Source of the DNA: Escherichia coli | GTDB lineage: Bacteria > Pseudomonadota > Gammaproteobacteria > Enterobacterales > Enterobacteriaceae | Strand: one strand, 5' to 3' | DNA: 64,000 nt | NCBI RefSeq assembly: GCF_045037415.1 | Contig: NZ_CP173438.1 | Shown: positions 3,863-61,195 of the stretch, piece by piece | How the letters are laid out: each line of letters begins with the position of its first letter | Numbering within the stretch: the stretch's first letter is position 1 | The notes under the pieces: model-generated | Told to the model about the DNA's origin: nothing | The model's database searches: none | What the model saw: the letters and a program-made list of their open reading frames with translations, nothing else | Translations under genes and position numbers: made by a program

Positions 3863-4453
3863 ATGATCACCGTTGCCCTTATAGACGATCACCTTATCGT
3901 CCGCTCCGGCTTTGCGCAGCTGCTGGGGCTGGAACCTGATTTGCAGGTAGTTGCCGAGTTTGGTTCGGGGCGCGAGGCGCTGGCGGGGCTGCCGGGGCGC
4001 GGTGTGCAGGTGTGTATTTGCGATATCTCCATGCCTGATATCTCCGGTCTGGAGCTTCTAAGCCAGCTGCCGAAAGGCATGGCGACAATTATGCTCTCCG
4101 TTCACGACAGTCCGGCGCTGGTTGAGCAGGCGCTTAACGCGGGGGCGCGCGGCTTTCTCTCCAAACGCTGTAGCCCGGATGAACTCATTGCTGCGGTGCA
4201 TACGGTTGCCACTGGCGGCTGTTATCTGACGCCGGATATTGCCATTAAACTGGCATCTGGTCGCCAGGACCCGCTAACCAAACGCGAACGCCAGGTGGCA
4301 GAAAAACTGGCGCAAGGAATGGCGGTGAAAGAGATTGCCGCCGAACTGGGCTTGTCGCCGAAAACAGTACACGTCCATCGCGCCAATCTGATGGAAAAAC
4401 TGGGCGTCAGTAACGACGTTGAACTGGCGCGCCGCATGTTTGATGGCTGGTGA
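3863..4453 (+). CDS. uhpA: response regulator UhpA (NarL/FixJ family, 196 aa)
   Basis: Receiver domain ([10 protein letters not shown]...) plus C-terminal LuxR-type HTH ([40 protein letters not shown]); followed by uhpB/uhpC/uhpT. Confidence 0.95.
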
Positions 4454-5955: not shown

Positions 5956-5964
5956 GGTTCGATG

Positions 5965-7284: not shown

Positions 7285-7421
7285 TGCATCTCACCTTTTC
7301 ACTTCATATCCGGCAAAACTAAGAAATTTTCCAGGTTTTGCCTGGACGCTATCTCAGGCCTGATTTGCTGCTGATTTTTACAATGCATGCCTCACGCAGG
7401 TATTCATTTCAGGAGTAACCC
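7285..7421 (+). promoter_or_regulatory. uhpC-uhpT intergenic region, expected UhpA-dependent uhpT promoter
   Basis: 137-bp spacer with a good Shine-Dalgarno (aggag) before uhpT ATG; promoter role inferred from known uhp regulation, individual sites not verified. Confidence 0.4.
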
Positions 7422-8813: not shown

Positions 8814-8831
8814 ACGTAACTGGTGACTTTT

Positions 8832-8859
8832 GCCCGGCATGACGCCGGGCTTTTTTTTA
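8832..8859 (+). terminator. intrinsic terminator between convergent uhpT and ade
   Basis: Perfect stem gcccggc / gccgggc with 5-nt loop followed by eight T residues. Confidence 0.8.
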
Positions 8860-10626
8860 TTATTCCGTGACTTCCAGCGTAGTGAAGGCAAACTTCTCAC
8901 CATCAAACAGCCCCTGACTGGTTAGTTTCAGCGCGGGGATCACTGGCAGGGAAAGAAACGCCATCTGAATAAACGGCTCATCCGGTAACGGACCGCATTC
9001 ACGGGCGGCGGCTTTCAAGGCGTCAATTTGCTCCGCCAGTGACTGCGCCGTGTCGGTGCTCATTAGCCCGGCAATGGGCAACGGTAGATGACTTTGTACC
9101 TGGCCGTTACGGACCACGCACAGCCCGCCGCCATCCTGAATCACCTGATTGACCGCCAGCGCCATCTCTTCTGCGCTACGACCGATCACCACAATATTAT
9201 GGCTGTCATGGCTGACCGTCGCCGCCAGCGCACCTTCATTCAGGCCAAAGCCGCCGAGCAAACCACAGGCCGGAGCCAGTCGTTGTCCGTAACGCTCAAG
9301 AACGGCAATAAAGCACACATCATCGCGATCAAAACCGTTTTCGCTGTAGACGCTGGAGCGGGAGTGCGTGATCAGTTCGTTATGGATTACCTCAATAACG
9401 CGATAGCGTTTTCCGGGGGTAAATTGCAGGGCAAAGTCACTGGCGGAAACTGGCTGGCGATCAATGGTATTGCCATATGGCGGGGCGGATTGTGCCAGTC
9501 TCGCCGACTCTTCCGCCTGTAAGGTTTGTGCATCGATCGGCTCGCCTTTCACCAGTACCTGCTGCACCGTGACCTTACGCGCATCGCTCAACAGGACGAT
9601 ATCGGCCTGCTTGCCGGGTGCCAGTAAGCCGAGGTGATTCAGACCAAAATGGCGCGCCGTCGACCAGCTGGCTACGCGATATGCCACATGCAGCGGTACA
9701 TTGTGTTGTTCGATCAGGCGGCGAATTAAGGCATCGATGTGTCCTTCATGGGCGATCTCCCACGGGTTACGGTCATCGGTACAGAGCATGCATTGCGGGC
9801 TGTTAAATTCGTTGATCAACGGTGCCAGCGCGTTGAGATTGCGGGCTGCGGACCCTTCACGGATCATCAATGACATGCCGAGTTGCAATTTCCGGCGTCC
9901 TTCTTCCAACTGATAACTTTCGTGGCAGTTTTCAATACCCGCAGCAATATAGGCGTTAAGTTCTTTACCACCCAAACCCGGGCAGTGACCGTCCAGTGTC
10001 AGGTGGCGAAATGCGTCCAGTTTATCGAGCAGCGCATTCTGCCCGCTAATTACGCCAGGGTAGTCCATCATTTCTGCAAGGCCGGTAACCTGCGGATGGT
10101 CCCGCCAGGCGAGCATCTGTTCAAGGGTAAAACTGGCACCATTAACATCGCAGCCTTCCAGGGCGGGTACGCAAGAGCTGACCTGTAAGTACTGGTTTTG
10201 CCTTGCCTGTTCGGCACAGCGGGCAAACCAGGCGAATCCGGCTTCTCCCATCACGTTGACGATTTCATGAGGGTCGCAAATAACGGTCGTCAGGCCGCGC
10301 GGCAGGGTAGCAGTTTCAAAGGTGACCGGCGTCATCATGCTGGATTCAATATGCAGGTGAGCATCAATAAACCCTGGCACCGCCGTTGCGCCGCGGGCAT
10401 CAATCCGCTGCAAAGCCGGAGCATCAGCGTATTCTGCGCCAACACCGGCAATGTAACGTCCTTTAATCACAATTGGGCCGGAAATTTCTCCGCCATTGAT
10501 CAGGTCGAGAATAGAGACATTATCAATAATATAATCGGCAACAGCGTCTCCACGGGAAACGGCTAACAATTCCTGGTATTCAGCCCGGCTAATGTGATGA
10601 AATTTATGGTTAATAGAATTATTCAT
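8860..10626 (-). CDS. ade: adenine deaminase (588 aa)
   Basis: Amidohydrolase metal-binding motifs ([15 protein letters not shown]...); length and position next to uhpT match E. coli ade (yicP). Confidence 0.93.
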
Positions 10627-10800
10627 ATTTTTCTCATTTTGATTTTATCAATTTGATTATTATTTATCATAAAGAAACGTCGCGAGATTATTAAAGAATA
10701 TCCATTAATGTGCAATTGAAATGTGATAATTATCACTGAACCGTTGTTGTCATTTGTTTTACAAAAGCAAGGGATTAAATCTCCTCCAATGGACAAAAAA

Positions 10801-12135
10801 ATGAATAATGACAATACCGATTACGTGAGTAATGAATCAGGGACGCTTTCGCGATTATTTAAACTACCTCAGCATGGGACCACCGTCCGCACAGAATTGA
10901 TTGCGGGGATGACCACTTTTTTAACCATGGTGTACATCGTTTTTGTGAACCCGCAAATCCTCGGCGCGGCACAAATGGACCCAAAAGTGGTGTTTGTTAC
11001 CACCTGTTTGATTGCCGGTATCGGCAGTATTGCGATGGGGGTATTTGCTAACTTACCCGTGGCACTGGCTCCGGCAATGGGCCTGAACGCCTTCTTTGCC
11101 TTCGTGGTCGTGGGGGCGATGGGTATCTCCTGGCAGACCGGGATGGGCGCGATATTCTGGGGCGCAGTTGGGCTATTTTTGCTCACGCTGTTTCGTATCC
11201 GGTACTGGATGATCTCCAACATTCCATTAAGTTTACGTATTGGTATCACCAGCGGAATCGGATTATTTATCGCCTTAATGGGATTAAAAAATACTGGCGT
11301 TATTGTCGCCAATAAAGACACCCTGGTGATGATTGGCGATTTAAGTTCTCACGGCGTGTTGTTAGGTATTTTAGGGTTTTTTATTATAACTGTGTTGTCA
11401 TCACGTCATTTTCATGCCGCGGTGCTTGTTTCTATTGTGGTGACGTCTTGCTGTGGATTATTTTTCGGTGATGTTCATTTTAGCGGTGTCTATTCCATTC
11501 CGCCTGATATTAGCGGCGTCATTGGTGAAGTGGATTTGAGCGGTGCGTTATCACTTGAACTCGCCGGTATCATTTTCTCCTTTATGCTGATCAACTTATT
11601 TGATTCATCAGGGACATTAATTGGTGTGACTGATAAAGCTGGCTTAATAGATAGTAACGGTAAATTCCCCAATATGAATAAGGCGCTGTATGTTGATAGC
11701 ATCAGTTCGGTGGCGGGTGCGTTTATCGGTACCTCGTCTGTTACCGCCTATATTGAAAGTACTTCAGGTGTGGCTGTCGGTGGTCGCACGGGGCTGACTG
11801 CGGTTGTTGTCGGCGTTATGTTTCTGCTGGTTATGTTCTTCTCACCGCTGGTGGCGATGGTTCCTCCTTACGCAACCGCCGGAGCGTTAATCTTTGTTGG
11901 CGTATTGATGACATCGAGCCTGGCACGCGTTAACTGGGATGATTTTACCGAATCGGTGCCTGCGTTTATTACCACGGTGATGATGCCCTTTACGTTCTCG
12001 ATCACCGAAGGGATTGCACTAGGCTTTATGTCGTACTGCATCATGAAAGTGTGCACCGGGCGCTGGCGCGATCTGAACCTGTGTGTGGTGGTGGTCGCAG
12101 CTCTGTTTGCACTGAAGATTATTCTGGTGGATTAG
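10801..12135 (+). CDS. adeQ: adenine permease, NCS2/AzgA-like (about 444 aa)
   Basis: Multi-pass membrane protein beginning MNNDNTDYVSNESGTLSRLFKL...; ORF track extends to 10723 via a GTG that I regard as a spurious N-terminal extension; ATG at 10789 also possible. Confidence 0.88.
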   Translation: MNNDNTDYVSNESGTLSRLFKLPQHGTTVRTELIAGMTTFLTMVYIVFVNPQILGAAQMDPKVVFVTTCLIAGIGSIAMGVFANLPVALAPAMGLNAFFAFVVVGAMGISWQTGMGAIFWGAVGLFLLTLFRIRYWMISNIPLSLRIGITSGIGLFIALMGLKNTGVIVANKDTLVMIGDLSSHGVLLGILGFFIITVLSSRHFHAAVLVSIVVTSCCGLFFGDVHFSGVYSIPPDISGVIGEVDLSGALSLELAGIIFSFMLINLFDSSGTLIGVTDKAGLIDSNGKFPNMNKALYVDSISSVAGAFIGTSSVTAYIESTSGVAVGGRTGLTAVVVGVMFLLVMFFSPLVAMVPPYATAGALIFVGVLMTSSLARVNWDDFTESVPAFITTVMMPFTFSITEGIALGFMSYCIMKVCTGRWRDLNLCVVVVAALFALKIILVD

Positions 12136-12187
12136 TAACTGGCGAGGGTTTCCAGATATCATGAGTTCTGATTACGCAGGAGAACTC

Positions 12188-12640
12188 ATGATCTGGATAA
12201 TGCTCGCCACGCTGGCGGTAGTGTTTGTGGTTGGTTTTCGGGTGCTGACATCCGGGGCCAGAAAAGCGATTCGCCGTCTCAGCGATCGGCTGAACATCGA
12301 TGTCGTACCCGTGGAGTCGATGGTCGATCAAATGGGAAAGTCAGCCGGTGACGAATTTTTACGTTATTTGCATCGCCCGGATGAGTCGCACCTGCAAAAC
12401 GCCGCGCAGGTGTTGCTCATCTGGCAAATTGTCATTGTCGATGGTAGCGAACAGAACCTGCTGCAATGGCATCGGATTTTACAAAAAGCCCGCCTTGCCG
12501 CGCCGATTACCGATGCTCAGGTCAGACTGGCGCTGGGTTTTCTGCGCGAAACCGAACCTGAAATGCAGGATATCAATGCTTTTCAGATGCGCTATAACGC
12601 GTTCTTTCAGCCTGCCGAGGGCGTTCACTGGCTGCATTAA
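12188..12640 (+). CDS. yicN: DUF1198-like small protein YicN (about 150 aa)
   Basis: ATG at 12188 preceded by SD aggag; single N-terminal hydrophobic helix; the upstream ATG at 12161 lacks an SD. Confidence 0.8.
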   Translation: MIWIMLATLAVVFVVGFRVLTSGARKAIRRLSDRLNIDVVPVESMVDQMGKSAGDEFLRYLHRPDESHLQNAAQVLLIWQIVIVDGSEQNLLQWHRILQKARLAAPITDAQVRLALGFLRETEPEMQDINAFQMRYNAFFQPAEGVHWLH

Positions 12641-12644
12641 AACC

Positions 12645-12718
12645 GCTTCGTCTTATCAGCCTACAGACCGCGCCTGACCTGGTGGGTGGATAAGGCGTGT
12701 ACGTCGCATCCGGTATCG
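12645..12718. repeat. REP-like extragenic palindromic element
   Basis: Contains tcttatcagcctaca and ggataaggcg...cgtcgcatccgg, resembling E. coli REP consensus; lies between yicN and the toxin-antitoxin insertion. Confidence 0.55.
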
Positions 12719-12755
12719 GAATTGACAGTAGGTGAACGCATTATCTACGTTCTAT

Positions 12756-13079
12756 TTACAGCAGCACCTCCAGCCCGTGTTTTTGCACAATGCTGAGCAG
12801 TTTTAATGAAATGCCATTGGGGCGTTTAGCGCCACTTTCCCATTTTTGTACAGTTGAAACGCTGGTATTGAGATAGTGAGCGAAGACGGGCTGACTCACT
12901 TTTAATTTTTCCCGCAGTGCTTTTATCTCAACAGGTTGTAAGTCTTGCACGCTGGTCAGGCAGGCTTTGTCAAAAGTACGCATCGTTTCGGCAGAAATAG
13001 CATCGACTCTGGACAATCCAGCCGCTGCGCTGTGAATAGCTTCAAATGCAGGACTTTTAAATTTAGTTTTTGCAGTCAT
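12756..13079 (-). CDS. HTH (Xre/NadS-like) DNA-binding antitoxin candidate (107 aa)
   Basis: C-terminal HTH segment (SQPVFAHYLNTSVSTVQKWESG); 17-bp overlap with the upstream toxin-like gene. Confidence 0.7.
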   Translation of the reverse strand: MTAKTKFKSPAFEAIHSAAAGLSRVDAISAETMRTFDKACLTSVQDLQPVEIKALREKLKVSQPVFAHYLNTSVSTVQKWESGAKRPNGISLKLLSIVQKHGLEVLL

Positions 13080-13422
13080 AGCAGATCTCTGTCAGTTCTT
13101 TAGTGTTAATCATTGCTGTCAGTTGGGCTTTCGTCAGGAAGGCATAATGCTTTGCAAGTTCACGAAACCCAGCCAGTTCCTGACTATTAATGTTCGACAT
13201 ATCCTGTTTTGCATATAAAAACGTGTAAAACCAATTGCTTCCCCCTTTCGCCAGAATAATTGCACGCTCACGATTTCGGTGAAGGCGCTTTTTAAAAACG
13301 CCACCACCAAGTACATCAGCTTTACCTTGTTCCGTTTCTAAAATGGCCCGGCACAACTCTTCATCTGTTATTGCATGAGACCTGGCTTCCCTTGCAAACC
13401 ATTTGGTTTTAAACACGCGCAT
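13063..13422 (-). CDS. RelE/ParE-superfamily toxin candidate (119 aa)
   Basis: Small basic protein MRVFKTKWFAREARSHAITDEELCRAI... typical of RelE-like toxins paired with HTH antitoxins; toxin-first order as in HigBA-type pairs. Confidence 0.65.
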   Translation of the reverse strand: MRVFKTKWFAREARSHAITDEELCRAILETEQGKADVLGGGVFKKRLHRNRERAIILAKGGSNWFYTFLYAKQDMSNINSQELAGFRELAKHYAFLTKAQLTAMINTKELTEICYDCKN

Positions 13423-13649
13423 ATCGTTGAGATCCTGTTATTAAAGTATATCACCAAGTGCAATACTTTATCCCTTATTCCCAACCTAATCGCGAAAATG
13501 CATATCACCTTGCCCTATGATTTTTATTTCTTCGAGCAGCCTCGAACTTTTCCCACAACACCGTAAAAGTTGCAAAAACGTTAAATACGTCACACATTTC
13601 AATGTTAAAGTGGTCGGCTTTCCCTCTGAAACATGCCACGGGTAACACC

Positions 13650-14840
13650 ATGAGTGAATTTATTGCTGAAAACCGCGGCGCGGATGCCATCACCCGACCG
13701 AACTGGTCAGCCGTTTTCTCGGTGGCATTTTGCGTTGCCTGTCTTATTATCGTTGAGTTTTTGCCCGTCAGTTTGTTGACGCCAATGGCCCAGGATTTAG
13801 GCATTTCGGAAGGGGTTGCCGGGCAATCGGTGACCGTAACCGCTTTTGTGGCGATGTTTGCCAGTTTGTTTATTACCCAGACCATTCAGGCCACTGACCG
13901 CCGCTACGTTGTCATTCTGTTCGCCGTTTTGCTGACGCTTTCCTGTTTGCTGGTTTCCTTTGCCAACTCATTCAGTCTGTTGTTAATCGGTCGCGCCTGT
14001 CTGGGGCTGGCGCTGGGCGGATTCTGGGCGATGTCGGCGTCGCTGACCATGCGTCTGGTACCGCCGCGTACGGTGCCGAAGGCGCTGTCGGTGATCTTCG
14101 GCGCGGTTTCTATTGCGCTGGTGATTGCCGCGCCGTTGGGCAGTTTTTTAGGCGAGCTTATCGGTTGGCGCAATGTCTTTAATGCGGCGGCGGTGATGGG
14201 CGTGCTGTGTATTTTCTGGATTATCAAATCACTGCCTTCGCTGCCAGGCGAACCTTCGCATCAGAAACAAAATACTTTCCGCTTATTACAACGTCCGGGA
14301 GTGATGGCCGGGATGATCGCCATCTTTATGTCCTTTGCCGGACAGTTTGCTTTTTTCACTTATATTCGCCCAGTGTATATGAATCTGGCGGGATTCGGTG
14401 TTGATGGCTTAACCCTGGTGCTGCTGAGTTTTGGTATCGCCAGCTTTGTCGGGACATCGCTTTCGTCGTTTATTCTCAAACGTTCGGTGAAACTGGCCTT
14501 AGCGGGCGCACCGTTTGTGCTCGCCCTGAGCGCGCTGGTACTGACGCTGTGGGGAAGCGATAAAATTGTTGCTACTGGTGTGGCGATTATCTGGGGGCTG
14601 ACCTTTGCTTTAATTCCCGTTGGCTGGTCAACGTGGATCACTCGCTCACTGGCCGATCAGGCAGAAAAAGCCGGATCTATTCAGGTGGCCGTTATTCAGC
14701 TTGCCAATACCTGCGGTGCGGCAATCGGCGGTTATGCGTTGGATAACATTGGTCTGACTTCGCCGCTGATGTTGTCCGGCACATTGATGTTGCTGACTGC
14801 ATTGTTGGTGACTGCAAAGGTGAAAATGAAGAAATCCTGA
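13650..14840 (+). CDS. nepI: MFS purine ribonucleoside efflux pump NepI (396 aa)
   Basis: 12-TM MFS sequence; start at ATG 13650 ([13 protein letters not shown]...); ORF track start 13602 is likely an extension. Confidence 0.88.
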
Positions 14841-14880
14841 TATCAGGTAAAGAAGCGTTGGTCAGTGGTTGTTGCCGTTC

Positions 14881-15174
14881 TTACATATCCGGGCATTCTA
14901 CCTTACCCAACGCTTCCCAATAATTGCTCTGATTATTACGTTCCATCGCTACGATGGCTTCGCGTATGTGTTGTTTATTGCTTTCATCAGACAACATTAA
15001 CTTTTCCCACGCTTCATCTGATAACGATGCCTGCGGGGTACAAATTTTACGTAAATCTTGCAATACCGTGGTTTTCTCTTTTGCCGACTGTAGGGAACTG
15101 AATGGCGACTCGGCCTGAGAAATGGCTGGAAAAATCAGGAATATGGTAATCATGAGTAGCATCGTTGGCTTCAT
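14881..15174 (-). CDS. yicS: small secreted protein YicS (97 aa)
   Basis: MKPTMLLMITIFLIFPAISQA signal peptide; ATG at 15174 verified on sequence. Confidence 0.8.
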   Translation of the reverse strand: MKPTMLLMITIFLIFPAISQAESPFSSLQSAKEKTTVLQDLRKICTPQASLSDEAWEKLMLSDESNKQHIREAIVAMERNNQSNYWEALGKVECPDM

Positions 15175-15395
15175 AGCGGCAACCTTCTGCAAATGTGCAT
15201 CGAATGAAGCATAAGTGTAGTTTGCTTTTGCCGCTCTCATCATGCTGTACGAAAGGTGTTTGCGTGGTCAGTAAGAAGTGCCAGACTTTATATTCCACTT
15301 TTATTCCTTTTTATTCTTATCGATAGCGTTTCGTTTTTTAAACTGCAGCGACCTTACCGCTATAGTCAGGTAATCATTAATAAAAGGATAAAAAA

Positions 15396-16214
15396 ATGAA
15401 ACTGACAACACATCATCTACGGGCGGGGGCCGCATTATTACTGGCAGGAGTTCTGCTGGCAGGTTGCGACCAGAGCAGTAGCGATGAAAAGCATATTAAA
15501 GTTGGCGTTATTAATGGCGCAGAACAAGATGTCGCGGAAGTCGCTAAAAAGGTAGCAAAAGAGAAATATGGCCTCGATGTTGAACTGGTAGGATTTAGCG
15601 GTTCGTTGCTACCGAACGATGCGACAAATCATGGCGAGCTTGATGCGAACGTCTTCCAGCATCGACCCTTTCTTGAACAAGATAATCAGGCGCATGGTTA
15701 TAAACTGGTAGCGGTGGGAAATACGTTTGTCTTCCCCATGGCGGGTTATTCCAAAAAAATCAAAACCGTGGCGCAAATAAAAGAAGGCGCGACAGTGGCG
15801 ATCCCCAACGACCCGACTAACCTTGGTCGTGCGCTTTTACTGCTGCAAAAAGAGAAGCTAATTACTCTGAAAGAGGGAAAAGGGTTATTACCTACCGCGT
15901 TGGATATAACCGATAATCCACGCCATTTGCAGATAATGGAGCTGGAAGGGGCACAGTTGCCACGTGTACTGGACGACCCGAAAGTGGATGTAGCGATTAT
16001 CAGCACCACTTACATCCAGCAAACAGGACTTTCTCCGGTTAACGACAGCGTATTTATTGAAGATAAAAATTCGCCGTATGTGAATATTCTGGTGGCACGG
16101 GAAGATAATAAGAATGCAGAAAACGTGAAGGAATTTCTGCAATCTTATCAATCACCCGAAGTCGCTAAAGCGGCAGAAACCATCTTTAACGGAGGCGCGG
16201 TGCCTGGCTGGTAA
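15396..16214 (+). CDS. nlpA: lipoprotein 28, methionine-binding NlpA family (272 aa)
   Basis: Lipobox LLAGC after signal peptide; MetQ/NlpA family sequence. Confidence 0.92.
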   Translation: MKLTTHHLRAGAALLLAGVLLAGCDQSSSDEKHIKVGVINGAEQDVAEVAKKVAKEKYGLDVELVGFSGSLLPNDATNHGELDANVFQHRPFLEQDNQAHGYKLVAVGNTFVFPMAGYSKKIKTVAQIKEGATVAIPNDPTNLGRALLLLQKEKLITLKEGKGLLPTALDITDNPRHLQIMELEGAQLPRVLDDPKVDVAIISTTYIQQTGLSPVNDSVFIEDKNSPYVNILVAREDNKNAENVKEFLQSYQSPEVAKAAETIFNGGAVPGW

Positions 16215-16217
16215 TTC

Positions 16218-17141
16218 TCACTCATGCCGCGCCGGACGATTTATTTTTCTGGCGCGGCGGCGGGAATCCATTGAAATCAAAATCACCGATGACAGAATCA
16301 GCAGCGTTCCCAGCCAGTCCGGCAATGTGAAGGTGATCCCCAGCAACAGCAAAGAGAGCAGTGCGCTACTTAATGGTTCTGCACAGCTTAAAATGCTGGC
16401 TTTTGGACCACCAATTAATTGTGCTCCTTTCAGGTACAGACTAAATGTCAGGGACGTACCAATGACCACCAAATAAAAAAACGCCAGAATCAAACTGCCG
16501 TTAACGACAAAGTTTGTCCCTTGTCTGGCATAAAAGGGCAGCAGGATCAGACCGCCAATGAGCATACTCCAGCCGACGACCGGTAACGTGCCATAGCGAG
16601 CAATCAGCGTTGAGGGATAGGTGGTATAGAATGCAGCAGCAAATGCCGAGGCAATGCCCCAGAATAACGCGGCAGGAGAGATCGATAATGACGTCGGATT
16701 ACCGTGTGTCACCAATAAAAAAGTCCCGATCAGCGATGTCAAAATAGCGCAAAAAACCAGGATGCCGGGGCGGGATTTACGCACCAGTGAGAACCAGGCG
16801 ACGATAATAGTCGGTGAGAGGAATTGCAGCACCGTTGCCGTGGCTGCGTTCGATTTTTCGATGGTTAGCAAAAAAGTGAGCTGTACGGTTAGCGCGCCAA
16901 CCACGGAAAAAATCAGTAGGCTAATGGCATCTTTGTGATTGTTAATAATAGAAAAGATTTTATCACCATGAACAAATGATAGCGTCAGCAGAATCAATCC
17001 GGCGAATATCAAACGCGTCATAGTCAAAAACTGCGACGACATCTGGCTTTGCTCCATGATGTATTGCGCGCAGACCCCTGAACTTCCCCACAACACGGCG
17101 GCAATCAGAACGTTCAGCATCCCCTTTCTGGTGGAACCCAT
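16218..17141 (-). CDS. yicL: EamA/DMT-family transporter YicL (about 307 aa)
   Basis: 10-TM DMT sequence; ATG at 17141 ([11 protein letters not shown]...) verified; last recognisable core gene before the island. Confidence 0.88.
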
Positions 17142-17318
17142 TTTTCCCTCTGCATACTGTTTTGTCTTTTCATCAATATACGTTAAGGATACCACTACCG
17201 ATGACGGTGAGGGAGTAGAGTAATCAATCAGTTTTAGTGAATGGAGGAAATAATGACATATAACAATTATTCATATGGTGTTTAAAAAACCTCACTAAAA
17301 ACTCAATATGAAATTTAA

Positions 17319-30770: not shown

Positions 30771-31363
30771 ATGACCTGCTCCCCGTTGTTTCACACAAAA
30801 TCGTGTACAGGGTCGAAGTTCTGGCTCAATGTGCTGGCTGAACTGAAAAACAGCGGCCTGAACGATATCCTTATCATCTGTGCAGATGGCCTGAAAGGCT
30901 TCCCAGATGCCATCAACACAGTATATTCGGAGACCCACATCCAGTTATGCATCGTGCATATGGTGCGCAACAGTCTGCGCTTCGTGTCATGGAAGGACTA
31001 CAAAGCCGTCACTCGCGACCTGAAAGAGATTTAATCAGGCACCCACGGAAGAGGCAGGCTAGCAAGCACTAGATAAGCCGACGCTGGCAGGCTAACTGGC
31101 CGAATCTTACTACGTTCTTCGCTTATCTGACGGACATCCGCAAAGTGATCTATACGACAAATGCCATCGAGTCACTAAACAGTGTGATCCGCCATGCGAT
31201 CAAAAAGCGTAAAGTGTTCCCGACAGACGACTCGGTGAAAAAAGTGGTGTGGCTGGCAATCCAGTCTGCGTCCCAGAAATGGACAGTGCCATTGAAGGAC
31301 TGGCGTATGGCAATGAGCCGCTTTATTATCGAGTTCGGTGACCGCCTGAACGGTCACTTCTGA
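30771..31363 (+). mobile_element. IS256-family (mutator-type) transposase remnant
   Basis: Two ORF fragments (LKGFPDAINTVY...LCIVHMVRNS and ...TTNAIESLNSVIR...) match conserved IS256-family transposase segments; internally deleted. Confidence 0.65.
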
Positions 31364-53300: not shown

Positions 53301-53550
53301 TACTGCCAGCTTTGTGGGAAGAGAGGGCTTTTTCCAAACGCTCCAACAGCACCTGCTCGGCATTCACACCATGCAGTTTATTCAGTTTGTGCCAGGCATC
53401 TGGCTGGGTGGCCTTTACCCAATCCATGACATCTTGCGGGTAAAGGGCGCGTTGCTGGTCATAGTGGCAGGAATGGCCTTCTTTCCAGCCATTGTTCACC
53501 AACTGCTCGGTAATATATTGTTCAAAATGCACTTCATGATGTGCAGCCAT
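50314..53550 (-). CDS. hsdR: Type I restriction enzyme R subunit (1078 aa)
   Basis: Helicase motifs: Walker A EHSAGSGKT and DEAH-box variant IIDEAHTS; N-terminal nuclease-type region; start overlaps hsdS stop. Confidence 0.9.
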   Translation of the reverse strand: MAAHHEVHFEQYITEQLVNNGWKEGHSCHYDQQRALYPQDVMDWVKATQPDAWHKLNKLHGVNAEQVLLERLEKALSSHKAGSKTGGTINVLRKGFTIAGCGTIAMGQRKPEDARNEERIARYEHNILRVVRQLKYCPTREWEIDLVFFINGLPVATAELKTDFTQSLESAIAQYKEDRLPVDPKTKRKEPLLTFKRGAVVHFAMSDTEIAMATKLAGENTYFLPFNKGHDGSTSDLPVHINLPGEDGEYPVSYFWQEIAQKDNWLRIFYSFVYVETKEVADSNGKVERKETQIFPRYHQLAAVNKMIDDARQNGAGMQYLCEHSAGSGKTSTIAWTAHDLIRLRSTDGKAVFKSVIIVTDRTVLDSQLQDAVQQLDHQYGVIKAIDREKSSESKSKQLTEALLTGTPIIVVTIQTFPYALEAILTNQSLAQSNFAVIIDEAHTSQTGSTAKGLRAALTLNLSPQELEQMSIEDILTKVQEARAMPKNVSHFAFTATPKHSTKMLFGRPKDPNQPVSDDNLPESFHLYTQRQAIDEGFILDVLENYTHYDTAYKIGENNLDEKRVDSKQARRALARWMSLHPTTVSQKVEFIIKHFKANIAHLLEGEAKAMVVTSGRPQAVKYKLAFDKYIKKHGIEGIQALVAFSGKVPGKDLGDEDSQDPLEIDFDKEYTEYNLNPDTHGADLRHEFEKTEYRVMLVANKFQTGFNQPKLVAMYLDKKISDVEAVQTLSRLNRTYPGKDTTFVIDFVNDPQTILNAFKKYDKGAQLNEVQDVNVIYDIKDILDEQNIYNHQDLELFKQARGKSILGQSPDKKSHAHKKLLAATQRPTDVFNVKLKELVDAANHWDQQYNKAHLAGDEKAANYAESQRSDFTKQREALMRFKSDLARFVKHYSYMAQLIEFGDPELENFAAFAHLLSRRLKGVTPENIDLSALVLEKFKIKYDKEPLPEAFNQVLEPIRPNYNDPADREQAFLADIIRRLNELFGDVGDEPGRRNFANGTITRVTQNPIVVEQIEKHDKSIALKGDLPQAVKQAVVQALLKEGDIARTLLKDPQVMASYVELIFDMMKQGAEQAAVK

Positions 53551-54836
53551 TACACCGCCTCCCTGACGTCTATTTTTCCTGTGACAGCCGCGTTGATCAG
53601 CGATGTGCGGTGTTCTTTTAGAAGATCAATCGATTTATCAGTCTCTTGAATCAGTAAATCAATGTTTATCGTTGCTGCACTCAAGTAATTCGTTATTGTC
53701 TTTTGCTCATCAATTGGTGGGATAGCAATACTTGTATTAGCTAGTGAAGGAATGCTCAGGTTGTAGTTACCTACCGATGTTCTTGACTGAAATGTTAATG
53801 CTTGACGAACAGATAGTGAGTTCATCGCTTCCACTAAGAAGCTAGTATCCACTCCTTGCTTTGGTGTTAACTTTATTAGGTACGACGCAAATAAATACTG
53901 CCCATTTGAATCAAAAAGCGCGCTTTGGCCGACCAGATTAGGGTTACCGTTAGTTCTGATGACTAAAATGTCGCCTCTTGATAAAAGATAAGTTAAAGCA
54001 TCAACATCACTGATATTTGCATATTTGAGATCTTCAAAATCAACATTGGTACTCTTGATGTTTGGTATCCTGAGAACAGGATAGCCAACATCAGACTGGT
54101 TACAGTCTTGAGAGGTTCCATACATAAAGTTGGAGCAAATATGCTTTATCTTTTTGACTTCCCAATGCTTCGGCACTTGCCCAATCCACTCGATGCCAGA
54201 GTCCTGCATCTCCACATTGGGATAGAGCCCCTTTGTGACCACATGGCTGATCAGTGCTTGGCGTTTTTCTTTGAGCAGCTTAATAAAGGTCTGCTTTTCC
54301 TCGATCAGACTGTCGATGCGCTGGGTTTCGCGATCAAGGAATGTGCTAACCTGCTTCTGTAATGAAATATCAATCAGTGGAACAGGTATTTCTAAAAGAT
54401 CACCAGCTGTTAGGTTCTGACGAACTCCTCCACCCAGTTTGTTATAAATATTGGTTAGGTATAGAGCAAAAAAGTACCAGTAATAGAACCTTGGGTAGAT
54501 GCTATTTGAACTCGCTGAAACACGGATGTATGCAGGGCTCATTATTCCTCGTTCATGCACAATCCCCACTCGGCTAGTCTTTATATTTTCAAGATCTATG
54601 AGCTTAAAAACTAAGTCATCTTTTTCAAAAATCTGATAAACAGAGTAATCAGAAGATTGAAGTCCTTGTAAATCGTCTAACGAGCGGTTTATGACACCTT
54701 TCATTGTTAGTGCAAGACGATTAGATTCTTTCATTCCTTGATTGATTTCTTTGCTACTCGTAAATAAACGTTTAGCTGGTACTGAGTTCCATTTCGAGTC
54801 AGATACGAAAGCATCTACTATGTTGCCAGCATTCAT
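53550..54836 (-). CDS. hsdS: Type I R-M specificity subunit (428 aa)
   Basis: Two target-recognition-domain halves separated by conserved coiled-coil-like regions (LQKQVSTFLDRETQRIDSLIEEKQTFIKLLKEKRQALI); start overlaps hsdM stop. Confidence 0.85.
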   Translation of the reverse strand: MNAGNIVDAFVSDSKWNSVPAKRLFTSSKEINQGMKESNRLALTMKGVINRSLDDLQGLQSSDYSVYQIFEKDDLVFKLIDLENIKTSRVGIVHERGIMSPAYIRVSASSNSIYPRFYYWYFFALYLTNIYNKLGGGVRQNLTAGDLLEIPVPLIDISLQKQVSTFLDRETQRIDSLIEEKQTFIKLLKEKRQALISHVVTKGLYPNVEMQDSGIEWIGQVPKHWEVKKIKHICSNFMYGTSQDCNQSDVGYPVLRIPNIKSTNVDFEDLKYANISDVDALTYLLSRGDILVIRTNGNPNLVGQSALFDSNGQYLFASYLIKLTPKQGVDTSFLVEAMNSLSVRQALTFQSRTSVGNYNLSIPSLANTSIAIPPIDEQKTITNYLSAATINIDLLIQETDKSIDLLKEHRTSLINAAVTGKIDVREAV

Positions 54837-56815
54837 TACGCCACCTCATTCAGCAGAGCCTGAATGCGCGCTTCACATGCTTTTAGCTCACGATCAATCA
54901 CACTCAACTCGCGTGGTGGCACGTATTGGTAGAAATAGCGGTTAAAGTTAATTTCATAACCGACAATGCCCACTTCGCCGTCTTTTTCATCACGCACTGA
55001 GTGATCAATAAAGGCATCCGGTACATGTGGCAGCACCTCTTGTGCGAAGTAATCTTCAACGTCGCGGTCAAAAGGAATGCTTTCGGTGTCTTTGAGTTTA
55101 GGGTCGGCGATCACTTGGCCTTTTTCATCCAGTGCAGGCTCAAATTGCGGATCAATTTTTACAAAGTGCGCAGTTAAGGCCGTAGCCAGTGCTTTTGAGC
55201 ACTTACCAAAGTCACCCTTATTGTTATTCTTCTTAACCGCCAAACGTGCCCATTCATAAGGCTGAAGGCCAAGGTTATCGGTGAGGTATTGTACCCATGC
55301 CGCTTGTTGCTCTGGTTTGAGTTTTTTAAACGTATCTTGCTGCACAAATGCAGCAATGCCCGCAGCGGTAATATCTAGTTTGGCACGCAGTGGACGCTGA
55401 ATGGTGACTTTACGGTAGGCAAAATCAGTAGTCTGGAAGATCTTACAGTTGTCACTGGCTTCAAAGCCATCGTACGCACGGACAATATCGTCAATCTGTT
55501 CATCACTCAGGTACTTGCGCTTATCGCCTTGCGATTTACGCATGGGAGTCCAAATATCTGCCAAGTTAATCAGTTGCACCTGATTCTTGCGTCTTGGCTC
55601 TTTATGGTTAGTCAAAATCCAGATGTAGGTGCCAATGCCGGTGTTGAAGAACATATCGGTTGGCAGGGCAACAATCGCTTCGACTAAGTCTTGTTCTAGC
55701 AGCCAACGGCGGATTTCTGATGGGCCTGAGCCTGCATCGCCATTAAACAGTGGCGAGCCAGAAAGGACTATACCCACTCGGCCACCACCATTTTCTGGCG
55801 TTTCCATTTTTGATACCAAGTGCAGTAAAAACAGCATTGAACCATCAGAAATACTCGGCAGGCCTGGCCCAAAGCGTCCGGCGTATTTGAGCTGTTTGTG
55901 CTCACGTTCTACTTCTTTCTTGGCTTTTTCCCACTTAATGCCAAATGGCGGGTTGGCAAGGCCGTAGTGAAACTTGTCGGCACGTAACTGATCGTCTGAT
56001 AAGGTGTTGCCTTGCTTGATGTTATTGGCATCAAAACCGCGGATCATCATATTGGTCAGCGCCATGGCATGGGTCGCGGGGTCGAGCTCTTGACCAAAAG
56101 GCACGACTTTAGCGCTGCTGCCCATTTCTTCAATTTGGCTAATGGCATCGGAAAGGAAACCGCCCGTGCCACAGGTTGGGTCATAGATGGTGCGGATCAC
56201 ACCCTTTTCACTAAAGATATCTTCATCCGCCGCCAGCACCAGTTTGGTGGCAAGACGCACGGCATCACGCGGGGTCATAAATTCCCCGGCCTTTTCATTA
56301 ACCGAACTGGCGAACTTTAGAATCAGCTCTTCATAAGCATCTGATAATACGCGGTCAGACACTACATCAGGATGCAAGTCGAGGTTGGCAAAATGGTTTA
56401 CCATGCGATACAGCAACTTGGCTTTTTCCAGATCTTCTATGGTTTGACCAAATTTAAACTCATCAAAGATGGTACGAACGTTTTTGCTGAACTGGCTGAT
56501 GTAGTGTTCTAGGTTGTCGCCGGTGTCTGACGCGCCTAAGGTTTCTAGGCTATATTCACTGGTGTTGTAAAAGGCGAATCCCGCAATTTCTGGCAACACT
56601 AAACCAAGGTCTATGCCGGATTGTTTTTCGGCCAGATAGAACTTACGAACTTCCTCACGGGTGGGTTCTAACACGCATTCAATACGACGCAGTAGCAAAA
56701 ATGGCAGGATAATCCGCGCAAAATCGGTGTGTTTGAAATCACCCCATAAATCATCTGCCATACGCCAAATAGCACTGGAGAGTTTGGCGCTTTGTTCTTT
56801 GTCTTGTAAGTTCAT
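54836..56815 (-). CDS. hsdM: Type I R-M N6-adenine DNA methyltransferase subunit (659 aa)
   Basis: SAM-binding DPTCGTGGFL and catalytic NPPF (GLANPPFG) motifs; unusually long for HsdM. Confidence 0.9.
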   Translation of the reverse strand: MNLQDKEQSAKLSSAIWRMADDLWGDFKHTDFARIILPFLLLRRIECVLEPTREEVRKFYLAEKQSGIDLGLVLPEIAGFAFYNTSEYSLETLGASDTGDNLEHYISQFSKNVRTIFDEFKFGQTIEDLEKAKLLYRMVNHFANLDLHPDVVSDRVLSDAYEELILKFASSVNEKAGEFMTPRDAVRLATKLVLAADEDIFSEKGVIRTIYDPTCGTGGFLSDAISQIEEMGSSAKVVPFGQELDPATHAMALTNMMIRGFDANNIKQGNTLSDDQLRADKFHYGLANPPFGIKWEKAKKEVEREHKQLKYAGRFGPGLPSISDGSMLFLLHLVSKMETPENGGGRVGIVLSGSPLFNGDAGSGPSEIRRWLLEQDLVEAIVALPTDMFFNTGIGTYIWILTNHKEPRRKNQVQLINLADIWTPMRKSQGDKRKYLSDEQIDDIVRAYDGFEASDNCKIFQTTDFAYRKVTIQRPLRAKLDITAAGIAAFVQQDTFKKLKPEQQAAWVQYLTDNLGLQPYEWARLAVKKNNNKGDFGKCSKALATALTAHFVKIDPQFEPALDEKGQVIADPKLKDTESIPFDRDVEDYFAQEVLPHVPDAFIDHSVRDEKDGEVGIVGYEINFNRYFYQYVPPRELSVIDRELKACEARIQALLNEVA

Positions 56816-56882
56816 TGATACTACCTAAATGAAGTTAAATCGTTAAAAAAATCAGTGTATTGTTTGGTTATTATTTTGCGTT

Positions 56883-57389
56883 CTAGCTAAAGATGGCTTG
56901 CCAACGGCAAAATGCAGAACGATGTCTGTCGGTCCATTGGGTGCAAATAACATAGGTTTTTTCATCTCGCTGGGCCACTTTAGTGGTGGAGTAGCGGTTT
57001 CGCTCTTTGGCATCTTTGGCTGCACTGCGAATGTCTTCTGGCCGTGATGATTTAGCCAGTTTGAGCACGGGGAATGACAACCCAAAAATGTTGCGACAAT
57101 AGGTTAGCTGCGTGAGGTTTTCTATTTCACTCAGTGGTAGAGCATGTTCAACCAAGTCTTGGATAGCTTCGGTTATCTCTGCATTGCTGATATTGTGTTG
57201 CGTTTGTGCAACTTCCCGTGTCTCTACTTCATTTTCAAGAGCAACAGAAAACGGAAAACCTTTGGCTTGAACGGATTTAGCTAAAAAGACGTTAATAGCC
57301 TGCTCAATAGGTAAGCCCAACTCAGCAAAGATACTCGTGGCTTTTTCAAGCAGTTGAGGGTCTATATTGGTTGCCTTCATATGACTCAC
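56883..57389 (-). CDS. RelB/DinJ-like antitoxin-fold N-terminus fused to unknown C-terminal domain (168 aa)
   Basis: N-terminus LLEKATSIFAELGLPIEQAINVFLAKSVQAKGFPF resembles DinJ-type RHH domains; about 80-aa C-terminal extension unrecognised; 67 bp upstream of hsdM, same strand. Confidence 0.55.
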   Translation of the reverse strand: MSHMKATNIDPQLLEKATSIFAELGLPIEQAINVFLAKSVQAKGFPFSVALENEVETREVAQTQHNISNAEITEAIQDLVEHALPLSEIENLTQLTYCRNIFGLSFPVLKLAKSSRPEDIRSAAKDAKERNRYSTTKVAQRDEKTYVICTQWTDRHRSAFCRWQAIFS

Positions 57390-57652
57390 AAAACCTACAA
57401 ATTGTAATTTTTGTATCCTATAGGCTTTGCATTTTCACGGCTAGCAATAAAGTCAAAAAATGAGAAATAATTGATCTTAAAAAACTTAAAACAGGCTAAC
57501 AAATCAGCAGTTACACTTGTCATGCCCTGCTAGTGAGAGGATCTTATCACTTTCGATATTGATGCAATCAGGTGCCGCGATAGAGGAAGCTTGGTCAGGT
57601 AATGGTGCCAACTTACTGATTTAGTGTATGATGGTGTTTTTGAGGTGCTCCA

Positions 57653-57928
57653 GTGGCTTCTGTTTCTATCAGCTGTCCCTCCTGTTCAGCTACTGACGGG
57701 GTGGTGCGTAACGGCAAAAGCACCGCCGGACATCAGCGCTATCTCTGCTCTCACTGCCGTAAAACATGGCAACTGCAGTTCACTTACACCGCTTCTCAAC
57801 CCGGTACGCACCAGAAAATCATTGATATGGCCATGAATGGCGTCGGATGTCGTGCCAGTGCACGCATTATGGGCGTTGGCCTCAACACGGTTTTACGTCA
57901 CTTAAAAAACTCAGGCCGCAGTCGGTAA
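57653..57928 (+). CDS. insA: IS1 InsA (91 aa)
   Basis: Zinc-finger N-terminus CPSC...CSHC and HTH; IS1 InsA sequence. Confidence 0.9.
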
Positions 57929-58083
57929 CCTCGCGCATACAGCCGGGCAGTGACGTCATCGTCTGCGCGGAAATGGACGAACAGTGGGGCTATGTCGGGG
58001 CTAAATCGCGCCAGCGCTGACTGTTTTACGCGTATGACAGGCTCCGGAAGACGGTTGTTGCGCACGTATTCGGTGAACGCACT

Positions 58084-58350
58084 ATGGCGACGCTGGGGCG
58101 TCTTATGAGCCTGCTGTCACCCTTTGACGTGGTGATATGGATGACGGATGGCTGGCCGCTGTATGAATCACGCCTGAAGGGAAAGCTGCACGTTATCAGC
58201 AAGCGTTACACTCAGCGCATTGAGCGACATAACCTGAATCTGAGACTACATCTGGCAAGGCTGGGCAGGAAGTCACTGTCGTTCTCAAAATCGGTGGAGC
58301 TGCATGACAAGGTCATCGGGCATTATCTGAACATAAAACACTATCAGTAA
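58084..58350 (+). pseudogene. insB: IS1 insB, C-terminal part downstream of a premature stop
   Basis: Only the C-terminal 88 codons form an ORF; upstream insB frame contains TGA where I recall TGG in canonical IS1. Confidence 0.7.
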
Positions 58351-58366
58351 GTTGGAGTCATTACCA

Positions 58367-58594
58367 CTATTTTAATGGATTGTTAATCTTTGCATATTCA
58401 AACGGGCTGATACATTGTTCTCTGTTCGCATCCAGAAAATCTGCCCACCACTGTAGCATAAGTCGACGTTCTTCCAGATGTTCGGCTTTATGGATATACG
58501 CAGCACGTACACCATTACGCTCCTGATGGCTCATCTGACGTTCAGCCGCTTTATCTCGTGCTGTTCTGGTCTCAATACTTCCATGCCGTTGCAA
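58367..58594 (-). pseudogene. tyrosine integrase C-terminal fragment (P4-like), truncated by IS1
   Basis: 75-aa ORF ...YIHKAEHLEERRLMLQWWADFLDA... parallels the C-terminus of the integrase at 63036 (YNHAQYLDGRREMMQWYADYIDS); abuts the IS1 right end. Confidence 0.7.
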
Positions 58595-58762
58595 TTACCT
58601 CTTAAACCATTCCTTACCATTTTCATGTCTTCGATAAGAAATCTTCATCATGCATGATCGATTTTGTCGATCGATTCGATCGAATTTTCTCTTTTTACCC
58701 TGTCTTTTGCATGGTTTTAAAATAAGCAACCTTCTTTATCGTGTGGGTAAGAACCAACGGAG

Positions 58763-59518
58763 ATGATTGAAATGAAAAAGGTTATTGCTGTTTCAGCGCT
58801 TGCTATGGCGGGCGTATTTTCAGCCCAGGCTCTGGCTGATGAGAACAAAACTGGCTTTTATGTGACTGGTAAAGCCGGTGCTTCAGTTGTGGCTCAGACT
58901 GACCAGCGCTTCCGTCAGGACTTGGGGGAGGATGTTTATAAGTATAAGGGCGGCGATAAGAACGATACTGTATTTGGTGAAGGCCTTGCGGTGGGCTATG
59001 ATTTTTATCAACATTACAATGTTCCTGTGCGCACGGAAGTGGAATTCTATGGCCGCGGAGCTGCGGACTCCCATTATACACTGGATACATGGCATTCTCC
59101 GATGGGGAATGGTGGTCGGGAAGACACACAGAACAGGCTCAGTGTGAATACCCTGATGGTGAACACGTATTATGATTTCAGAAACAGCAGTGCATTCACT
59201 CCATGGGTATCTGTTGGCCTAGGTTATGCACGAGTACATCATAAGGCGACATATACTGATACCTCCAGGAATGAATCTGGCGAGATAAGTGATATTTCTG
59301 AGTTACATTACTCGGGATATGATAACAATTTCGCATGGAGCATTGGGGCCGGTGTTCGCTATGACGTAACCCCGGATATCGCTCTTGACCTCAGCTATCG
59401 CTATCTGGATGCTGGTAAATCCTCCCTGTCTTACAAGGATGCAGAAGAGGATAAATATAAATCAGAAGTTGACGTTAAAAGTCACGACATCATGTTTGGT
59501 GTGACTTATAACTTCTGA
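58763..59518 (+). CDS. outer-membrane beta-barrel protein with signal peptide (about 248-251 aa)
   Basis: Signal peptide KKVIAVSALAMAGVFSAQALA, alternating-hydrophobic strands and C-terminal ...GVTYNF typical of OM beta-barrels; ATG 58772 with SD ggag is an alternative start. Confidence 0.7.
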   Translation: MIEMKKVIAVSALAMAGVFSAQALADENKTGFYVTGKAGASVVAQTDQRFRQDLGEDVYKYKGGDKNDTVFGEGLAVGYDFYQHYNVPVRTEVEFYGRGAADSHYTLDTWHSPMGNGGREDTQNRLSVNTLMVNTYYDFRNSSAFTPWVSVGLGYARVHHKATYTDTSRNESGEISDISELHYSGYDNNFAWSIGAGVRYDVTPDIALDLSYRYLDAGKSSLSYKDAEEDKYKSEVDVKSHDIMFGVTYNF

Positions 59519-59692
59519 CGACACTGCTCCTGAGCGATAATTACACATATTCAGTAATTAAGATATTTATATATCTTCTGCAACTAAACAGAAATACCCT
59601 GCAGTAATATATCGCAGGGTCATTTGTTTCACAGGAGATTTCTGGTTTTTATTATGTTATTCTCTTTATAATAATATTACCGATATATTCCG

Positions 59693-61195
59693 ATGAATAT
59701 CAGAAAACTGTTTTGTCCGGGCAACACACCCCAGATTTTATTGTTTTTATTCTTTTTTATTGTTTCTGTAATAACCACAATTGCATGCGGATACACTGAG
59801 AAGAATGCCACAGGAAATGTGCTGCTTCTGTTTCTCCTTCTTCTCCTTGCACACAGAAATACCCTCACATCCATTACAGCGCTGTTATTTCTGTTCTGTT
59901 GTGCACTGTATGCGCCTGCCGGTATGACGTACGGTAAAATCAACAACAGTTTTATTGTCGCGTTGTTGCAGACCACAACTGATGAGGCAGCGGAGTTTAC
60001 CGGGATGATTCCTGTTTATCATTTTCTGGTCAGTGCCGCGATTCTGGTATTCATGGTGATTTTCTGGCGGACACATCACCGTGGTCACCGTAACTGGCTG
60101 GCACTGCTGCTGTTCGTATTATGCTCAGTAAACAGCTGGCCGTTGCGGATGGTTAAAGGAACTGTTGTGGGGACAACTGACACATTGCGTGAAATGCAGC
60201 ATTATAAACAACTGAGTCAGCACGGGGCTGACAACTGGAAAATCCTGCCGGGAACACCGTTATATGACACGATTGTGATTGTCACTGGTGAGAGTGTGCG
60301 CAGGGATTATATGTCGGTATATGGCTATCCCGTGCCAACCACGCCGTGGCTGAATACAGCTCCCGGTTTATTTATTGACGGCTATACATCGGCAGCAGCC
60401 AGTACCGTACCTTCCCTGAGCCGGACACTGATTTATGACTATGAGCAGAACCCTGATTCCGGCAACAACGTGGTGGCGCTGGCAGCAAAAGCAGGATACA
60501 GCACATGGTGGATATCCAATCAGGGAAAACTGGGAGAGCATGACACACGCATCTCTGTTATTGCTTCTGATGCGGAGCATACCGTTTTCCTCAAGAAAGG
60601 CAGCTTCGCTTCCCGTAAAACGGATGACATGTTGTTGTTACAGGAAACAGAACGTGCGCTGGCGGATAAATCCTCTCCGAAGGTGATTTTCCTGCACATG
60701 ATTGGCTCTCATCCGAATCCGTGTGACCGACTTAACTCCTGGCCGAATTATTACCTGGAGCAGTATCCCCGAAAGATTGCCTGTTACCTCGCCAGCATCA
60801 GTAAACTGGATAACTTTCTCGGTCAGCTTGATGGTATCCTTCGCCGGCATTCCCGTCATTTCGTCATGCTTTACTTTTCTGACCATGGGCTGTCGGTCAG
60901 CGACAGTGCTAATCCTGTTCATCATGATGGTCATGTGCAGGGAGGCTACAGCGTTCCCCTGATTATTACCGCCAGTGACATCACGTCTCATCAGTCCGTC
61001 AGCAGAAAAATCAGTGCCCGTCATTTCGCAGGTATTTTTCAGTGGCTGACCGGCATTCGTACTGAAAATATACCGCCATTCAATCCGCTGACAGACGAAG
61101 ATAATGAACTCATTATGGTTTTTAACGGAGACAAGAATGTACCGACAGACAGTCTTGAGTCACAACCTCTGATTCTTCCGGGCAAGGGAAAATAA
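59693..61195 (+). CDS. sulfatase-family phosphoethanolamine transferase candidate (500 aa)
   Basis: N-terminal multi-TM region followed by a periplasmic sulfatase-like domain (IVIVTGESVRRDY, HMIGSHPNPCDRL); EptA/OpgE-like architecture. Confidence 0.7.
   Translation: MNIRKLFCPGNTPQILLFLFFFIVSVITTIACGYTEKNATGNVLLLFLLLLLAHRNTLTSITALLFLFCCALYAPAGMTYGKINNSFIVALLQTTTDEAAEFTGMIPVYHFLVSAAILVFMVIFWRTHHRGHRNWLALLLFVLCSVNSWPLRMVKGTVVGTTDTLREMQHYKQLSQHGADNWKILPGTPLYDTIVIVTGESVRRDYMSVYGYPVPTTPWLNTAPGLFIDGYTSAAASTVPSLSRTLIYDYEQNPDSGNNVVALAAKAGYSTWWISNQGKLGEHDTRISVIASDAEHTVFLKKGSFASRKTDDMLLLQETERALADKSSPKVIFLHMIGSHPNPCDRLNSWPNYYLEQYPRKIACYLASISKLDNFLGQLDGILRRHSRHFVMLYFSDHGLSVSDSANPVHHDGHVQGGYSVPLIITASDITSHQSVSRKISARHFAGIFQWLTGIRTENIPPFNPLTDEDNELIMVFNGDKNVPTDSLESQPLILPGKGK

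Follow-up and report, generated by a model that had tools for sequence, protein, structure and literature searches.

The selC tRNA gene of enterotoxigenic E. coli is said to be the site of a pathogenicity island that carries tia, reportedly described by Fleckenstein et al. in 2000. IS1 elements are usually bordered by a direct duplication of the target, in most cases of 9 bp. When insertion sequences are found without such duplications, this is usually ascribed to recombination between two insertion sequences or to an adjacent deletion (PMC11708052). In PMC8764528, with reference to Garcia 1994, the afa-3 cluster is described as flanked by IS1 and as moving by IS1-mediated recombination, and afa/dr genes have been placed in GI-selC of the ST131 strain EC958 (PMC8764528). 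A literature search combining tia, selC, and IS1 returned nothing specific to the joint described here.

In the window, i.e. the whole stretch of 64,000 nucleotides that was analysed, an IS1 copy stands next to the remains of an integrase gene in an island at selC. Our main reading, to which we assign a probability of roughly 0.8, is that this non-autonomous, mosaic IS1 is a rearrangement joint within the island, and that its right end has been fused to an integrase relic that was already truncated. The IS1 would have been fixed at the end of a module encoding a type I restriction-modification system and a RelB/DinJ-like protein, and an IS1-dependent event would have fused its right end to the 3′ end of a truncated leuX-type integrase, beyond which tia and a phosphoethanolamine (PEA) transferase gene follow. 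Such an event would leave no 9-bp duplication. The founding event may have been an intramolecular replicative transposition, giving an adjacent deletion rightward from the fixed IS1, or a homologous recombination with a second IS1. The DNA lost would be that between the IS1 and the 3′ end of the integrase, not the 5′ part of the integrase. Later the IS1 would have acted as portable homology, with afa/dra or multidrug-resistance cargo present in sister genomes between two chimeric IS1 copies inside the same flanks. The anatomy, the geometry, the counts across genomes, and the mosaicism are shown; the mechanism of the founding event and the order of the single-IS1 and two-IS1 states are inferred.

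The Genomic Island at selC

Positions 1-44481 and 44481-49913 of the window are 99.99-100% identical to the chromosome of E. coli strain IPCEC48, and the region 57000-59600 is 100% identical in strains 219, IPCEC48, and IPCEC42. A genomic island of about 46 kb, reaching from setC to the tRNA-Sec gene (selC), starts at about 18.5 kb and runs to the end of the window; selC itself was placed immediately outside the window by means of strain 219. Going inward from selC the island encodes an integrase, a TPR protein, a PEA transferase, and Tia, followed by the integrase stub and the IS1. Past the IS1 come the RelB/DinJ-like gene, hsdM, hsdS, hsdR, RhuM, and MobI. The genes that frame the joint are:

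56883..57380, minus strand: antitoxin-like gene of the RelB/DinJ family, with which the conserved type I restriction-modification module to the left of the IS1 ends
58772..59518, plus strand: tia, invasion outer-membrane protein (from the annotation), the first gene of the right-hand module
63036..64000, minus strand: the selC-associated island integrase, intact and cut by the window end (annotated in strain 219; the "first" integrase, as against the "second" one named in an earlier note on this DNA)

With strain 219 the island (18543-64000) shares 99.99-100% identity, and the core genes next to it, from ilvB to yicL (1-17170), only 94-97%. Thus, the same island is found in different chromosomal backgrounds. 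The stretch encoding HTH, MobI(A/C), RhuM, HsdRSM, and the RelB-like protein (46400-57389) may resemble the integrase-less cargo and mobilisation half of an IncA/C-mobilisable genomic island.

Some further features of the island were observed. At 42934-46028 a unit of about 1548 bp is tandemly duplicated when compared to IPCEC48 and strain 219. It consists of ISEc45, a member of the IS110 family, and an IS66 fragment of about 96 bp, and the two ISEc45 copies are identical. The annotation of IPCEC48 places an open reading frame for the heat-stable enterotoxin EAST1 (astA) within a transposase remnant of the island; by collinearity with L017:32574-32639 in that annotation it corresponds to about 30950-31030 in the window. 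Finally, three GATC (Dam) sites, part of a repetitive GATCGAT motif, occur within 26 bp (58656-58681) at some 90-115 bp upstream of tia, and this cluster could be a candidate methylation-sensitive regulatory region.

Structure of the IS1 Copy

The IS1 has the length expected for the family, imperfect terminal repeats of about 23 bp, insA, and an insB′ in the -1 frame that extends to 58350 and is reached through an A6C motif:

57598..58365, plus strand: IS1 element of 768 bp, mosaic, with a nonsense mutation in insB; full-length matches to other IS1 copies are 93-98% identical
57598..57620, plus strand: left terminal inverted repeat, variant GGTAATGGTGCC, with A at position 4 and G at position 8 (other copies GGTGATGCTGCC)
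58343..58365, minus strand: right terminal inverted repeat, starting GGTAATGACTCC, matching the left repeat at 20 of 23 positions
57653..57928, plus strand: insA, intact, 91 codons, from the list of open reading frames and their translation
57902..57912, plus strand: A6C motif TTAAAAAACTC for the programmed -1 frameshift, which is also given in the reference annotation
58018..58020, plus strand: TGA nonsense codon in the insB′ frame where the canonical codon is TGG; InsAB′ would end after about 120 of 232 residues
57589..57597: left 9-bp flank, gcttggtca, with which the conserved RelB/DinJ-hsd module ends
58366..58374: right 9-bp flank, actatttta; the junction here cuts the natural stop codon of the integrase stub

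The TGA divides the insB frame into two open reading frames, 57847..58020 and 58084..58350. Position 423 of the element is a G, giving the TGG codon, in all 18 other IS1 copies sampled. A canonical isoform with the codon of the window, which the earlier note had named as a refutation, is thus not the case. The exact 61-mer with the nonsense A was found in only nine of 8093 IS1-bearing E. coli records. The identical sequence of strain 219 is annotated by NCBI as a pseudogene, with the wording [quoted passage not shown]. The stop in insB is a genuine, rare nonsense allele.

Judged from its sequence, this IS1 is non-autonomous, i.e. without an InsAB′ transposase of its own. It has kept insA and both ends, the left repeat with two substitutions in the outer 8 bp, and other IS1 copies could in principle act on it in trans. 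Such copies are present in the near-identical strain IPCEC48, where three places match the region of the 61-mer. Within the window neither a second IS1 copy nor a paralogue of the PEA transferase gene, which would be a sign of a cointegrate, was found.

The 9 bp on the two sides of the element differ, and no duplication was detected when either end was shifted by up to 4 bp and lengths of 6-14 bp were allowed; the best match was five of ten positions. The direct duplication usual for the IS1 family is thus missing here, and this reflects an IS1-associated rearrangement rather than decay. The earlier note, made from the letters alone, had already pointed to the missing duplication and to the in-frame TGA in insB. 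Both observations hold, the former also with redefined ends. It had further called the copy "probably immobile", which is overstated given that insA and both ends are retained.

A Fixed Left Junction and a Variable Right Junction

The left junction, gaggaagcttggtca joined to GGTAATGGTG, is present in 75 of the 76 complete E. coli genomes that have the left flank, and in ten out of ten further distinct contexts found by exact-protein lookup in public assemblies. Each IS1 copy at this junction carries the private left-repeat variant GGTAATGGTG. The A at position 4 and the G at position 8 are common to all 19 copies sampled at the RelB-side left junction and are absent from IS1 copies at other junctions, which carry the usual GGTGATGCTG. 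No left flank free of IS1 came up among the complete E. coli genomes; PLSDB plasmids yielded only a 67%-identical relative from Photobacterium, and a 28-mer scan of the GTDB representative genomes yielded no match. This speaks against the main reading, and so does the missing reciprocal junction described below.

On its right side the fixed IS1 is joined to no fewer than 11 different sequences, in none of which gcttggtca recurs. They include the integrase stub with tia, the neighbourhood of a YagK-family (inovirus Gp2-type) gene, a cytochrome b562/IS3 region, a sucrose-utilisation (porin/hydrolase) region, a BREX cluster, a pheV island, and several cargo regions. One invariant and one promiscuous end are the expected product of repeated IS1-driven adjacent rearrangement or of recombination between IS1 copies. 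In one assembly (L026:1-4742) the junction of the RelB-like gene and the IS1 is fused rightward to a BREX cluster (BrxA, BrxB, BrxC), so that two defence systems are found there, one on each side of the IS1.

The 3′ end of the integrase also looks like a local IS1 hot spot. In various genomes four or more distinct IS1 junctions are clustered within about 45 bp of this AT-rich end, and the junctions at L009:6231-6998, L010:3326-4093, and L011:3348-4115 all map to 58366-58410 of the window. One of the junctions is inverted, another lies in a full-length leuX integrase and is accompanied by a 17-bp deletion, and none of them has a target-site duplication.

One of the two ways in which the joint may have been founded is that the IS1 fixed on the RelB side transposed replicatively and intramolecularly into ACTATTTTA at the 3′ end of the integrase, giving an adjacent deletion. 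We rate this as somewhat short of an even chance. It would explain why one IS1 end is invariant and the other promiscuous, and missing duplications often go back to adjacent deletions (PMC11708052). The right flank starts exactly where the continuity of the uninterrupted site starts. When 5426 genomes were queried with a synthetic reciprocal junction, in which the terminator and ACTATTTTA are followed by the IS1 left end, there was no exact case and so no simple-insertion ancestor duplicated at ACTATTTTA; the query turned up other IS1 junctions a few bases away. The genome of strain GON1437 further contains, after its left IS1 and after an inverted IS1 about 1 kb off, the 9-bp sequences aatatataa (L005:3092-3100) and ttatatatt (L005:4933-4941). 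These are mutual reverse complements and are the footprint expected of an intramolecular replicative inversion by IS1 at this locus. Against this stands that in present-day sequences the outcome is inseparable from that of recombination between IS1 copies. The window copy is also devoid of transposase now, though the TGA, with its nine records, probably postdates the joint.

Cargo and Mosaicism of IS1 in Sister Genomes

The window contains a single IS1 and is no composite of the afa-3 or Tn9 kind, where two IS1 copies bracket a cargo. In sister genomes the outer flanks of the window bracket two direct IS1 copies, with the following between them:

GON1437: a 14-kb afa/dra adhesin region
Iso00225: a 7-kb TEM-1/catA1/IS26 region
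2009C-3133: a 27-kb Tn21-type mercury/integron region
ETEC1738: a 22-kb Tn21-type mercury/integron region
OkiPb01676: an IS-rich lld segment

The differences between the IS1 copies fall in blocks and not at scattered sites. The window copy equals the left copy of GON1437 at positions 1-196 and 298-538, TGA included, and the right copy at 247-265 and 573-768. A single crossover between this pair is not sufficient to produce it, as the patch at 247-293 needs an additional conversion tract. The single IS1 of strain MEW is identical to the left copy of Iso00225 up to about position 600 and from there on to the right copy. MEW and the window have the same flanks, with no difference in 1153 positions, whereas their IS1 copies differ at 19 of 768. 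This combination of block-wise differences and invariant flanks shows that homologous recombination or gene conversion has taken place among the IS1 copies at the joint.

The TGA allele is found in the single-IS1 genomes 219, IPCEC48, and IPCEC42, and a TGA-bearing IS1 occurs at the same left junction in GON1437, JCH8249, JCH767, and MSB1_8B. In GON1437, the only one of these four whose cargo was inspected, the TGA copy is the left member of the afa/dra pair and the second IS1 lies at the right junction of the window. From the distribution we infer that the single-IS1 state is probably older than the state with cargo, since different cargoes share the outer flanks and the single-IS1 block is also found at leuX.

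The other way in which the joint may have been founded is RecA-dependent recombination between two separately inserted IS1 copies, either as a deletion between direct repeats or as integration or resolution of an IS1-bearing molecule. Taking these variants together, we regard this as a real possibility that stays a little below even odds. The clear IS1 mosaicism at the locus and the two-IS1 composites with the same outer flanks are in line with it, and so is the repeated targeting of the integrase 3′ end at independent junctions within about 45 bp (L009, L010, L011). The afa-3 cluster, too, is reported to move by IS1-mediated recombination (PMC8764528). Speaking against it, neither of the parental simple insertions has been observed, nor has any parental arrangement of the joint been seen directly, and the mosaicism may stem from later gene conversion and not from the founding event.

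A more far-reaching and tentative reading, which we hold to be possible rather than probable, is that the IS1, permanently attached to the restriction-modification/RelB-like block, acts as a portable recombination adaptor. It would shuffle the block among tRNA-linked islands (selC, leuX, pheV, and a BREX neighbourhood), again and again docking and losing IS1-bounded cargo such as afa/dra adhesin operons and multidrug-resistance regions, and the window would represent an empty dock.

The Integrase Relic and Its Truncation

To the right of the IS1 lies the remnant of a second integrase gene:

58367..58549, minus strand: what is left of a P4-like tyrosine integrase of the leuX type, its final 60 codons and the stop; a partial CDS in the reference annotation
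58544..58549: breakpoint of the integrase 5′ truncation and old junction to the tia upstream region, where homology to full-length integrases stops; identical in strain 165

In the 421-residue leuX integrase of SMS-3-5 the stub corresponds to residues 361-420, with 92% identity. The stub retains the region of the catalytic tyrosine (AAYIH); the HGFR box and everything upstream of it are gone. In the sequence of strain 219 it is annotated as a partial integrase without an N-terminus. A functional P4-like integrase has about 400 residues with an arm-binding domain and the R-H-R-Y residues, of which only residues 361-420 are left here. It would also adjoin a tRNA attachment site; no tRNA was found in the window, and the breakpoint of the stub is followed by the upstream DNA of tia. 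The DNA homology to the full-length leuX integrases of SMS-3-5, FDAARGOS_1289, and Res13-Lact-PEB20-37-A extends from 58366 to about 58548 and then ends, and in two population searches the matches of full-length integrases end at this same breakpoint. Full-length integrases end in NNPLKQ and a stop. The stub ends in NNPLK and a stop, owing to a CAG to TAG point change (ACTG to ACTA), and the IS1 junction divides the natural TAA stop of the integrase after its first base.

The earlier note had counted 75 integrase codons beside the IS1. That a truncated integrase adjoins the element is correct; the 75-codon frame (58367..58594, minus strand) is a mechanical open reading frame with a TTG start, in which homology to integrases is confined to the final 60 codons, from 58367 to about 58549.

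The same note had proposed that the 5′ part of the integrase and the intervening DNA were lost in a single adjacent deletion mediated by IS1. This would account for the missing duplication and for the position of a truncated integrase directly beside the IS1, and is nevertheless very improbable because of the orientation of the gene. The stub is read from the minus strand, and it is its 3′, C-terminal end that abuts the IS1, with the junction in the natural stop codon. The missing N-terminal part of about 360 codons would lie about 180 bp off, on the far side towards tia, where upstream DNA of tia is found, and a scan of the window detected no IS1 sequence on the tia side of the stub.

Comparison with other genomes points the same way. 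Strain 165 has the same stub with the same breakpoint and tia, and has no IS1 there; its uninterrupted site reads cccgggatgatt followed directly by ACTGTTTTAATGG. Leftward of the stub in this strain, cccgggcatttgcccgggatgatt, joined to ACTGTTTTAATGG, is a terminator-like hairpin, with a PEA transferase pseudogene before it. The genomes with an intact gene (FDAARGOS_1289, Res13-Lact-PEB20-37-A) have leuX, a full-length integrase, the hairpin/terminator, and the PEA transferase pseudogene, which also speaks for a truncation independent of the IS1. The sequence is continuous across the IS1 insertion point in 1772 genomes. The junction between the stub and the tia upstream region occurs in 829 genomes by megablast and in 1006 by blastn, and that between the IS1 and the stub in 44 genomes only. 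SMS-3-5 has the block of IS1 and stub in a form identical to that of the window; the two part only beyond about 58628, further into the tia-like region. Since the same breakpoint occurs without IS1 in strain 165, and since the older junction is found in 829-1006 genomes and the IS1 junction in 44, the truncation is independent of the IS1. It is an older, separate event, and the IS1 of the window did not truncate the integrase. What remains of the proposal is a rearrangement linked to IS1: the terminator hairpin and the PEA transferase pseudogene that are found 3′ of the integrase elsewhere are missing from the window, where the RelB/hsd module is in place. In genomes without IS1 (strain 165, FDAARGOS_1289) the right flank runs on leftward into this very DNA, as would be expected if the joint arose by adjacent deletion or by recombination between insertion sequences. 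The loss thus lay on the other side of the stub and not in the 5′ part of the integrase.

The last alternative, that a former duplication decayed by point mutation or that the IS1 ends were set wrongly, is conceivable as a general possibility only and is rejected as having a negligible probability, as no shift or length brings the flanks beyond five matches in ten positions, as they are conserved to 99.9-100% from genome to genome, and as the uninterrupted site reveals the left flank to be unrelated, foreign DNA.

The stub is a relic of an older leuX-type island. The PEA transferase pseudogene of the IS1-free genomes (L008:5498-6682) is 91.6% identical to the intact PEA transferase gene of the window (60006-61179), and is convergent with the stub. 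This repeated adjacency, a PEA transferase followed by an integrase convergent with it, suggests that two related islands once lay in tandem. After tandem accretion of islands, the 5′ part of the integrase and the attachment site may have been lost.

Significance

Public records already carry annotations of both the IS1 copy and the integrase stub, and what happened here is textbook behaviour of insertion sequences that implies no new biology. The value of the analysis is mainly corrective. A truncated integrase beside an insertion sequence without duplication tempts one to tell a story of one event, and the strand geometry together with the population comparison show that there were two unrelated ones. 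As a modest practical point, some clinical E. coli lineages have afa/dra adhesins or resistance regions at this IS1 joint of the selC island, and an eye for the single-IS1 state helps to interpret island variation in genome surveillance.

Comparison with Known Systems

Like other IS1 copies that lack a duplication, the one in the window is a 768-bp element with terminal repeats, insA/insB′, and the A6C site, and it joins unrelated DNA. What sets it apart from typical copies of this kind is a nonsense codon of its own in insB, a left repeat substituted at two of its outer 8 positions, and its fixation at one specific junction across many genomes.

When the stub is compared with the leuX-type P4-like integrases of tRNA-linked islands, the region of the catalytic tyrosine motif is the same and the last 60 residues are 92% identical. 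Unlike these enzymes, it has lost about 360 N-terminal residues, comprising the arm-binding and core-binding domains and the HGFR box, has no tRNA gene beside it, and is non-functional.

With respect to the IS1-flanked afa-3/Dr cluster, GON1437 shares the IS1 junctions of the window and carries afa/dra between them, whereas the window has a single IS1 and no afa/dra. IS1-bounded resistance regions, of the Tn9-like or Tn21-derived type, are found at exactly the outer flanks of the window in Iso00225, 2009C-3133, and ETEC1738, whereas the joint of the window carries no resistance genes. Like the tia island reported from enterotoxigenic E. coli such as strain H10407, the DNA of the window contains a selC island of about 46 kb with tia, and is itself 99.99% identical to E. 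coli IPCEC48.
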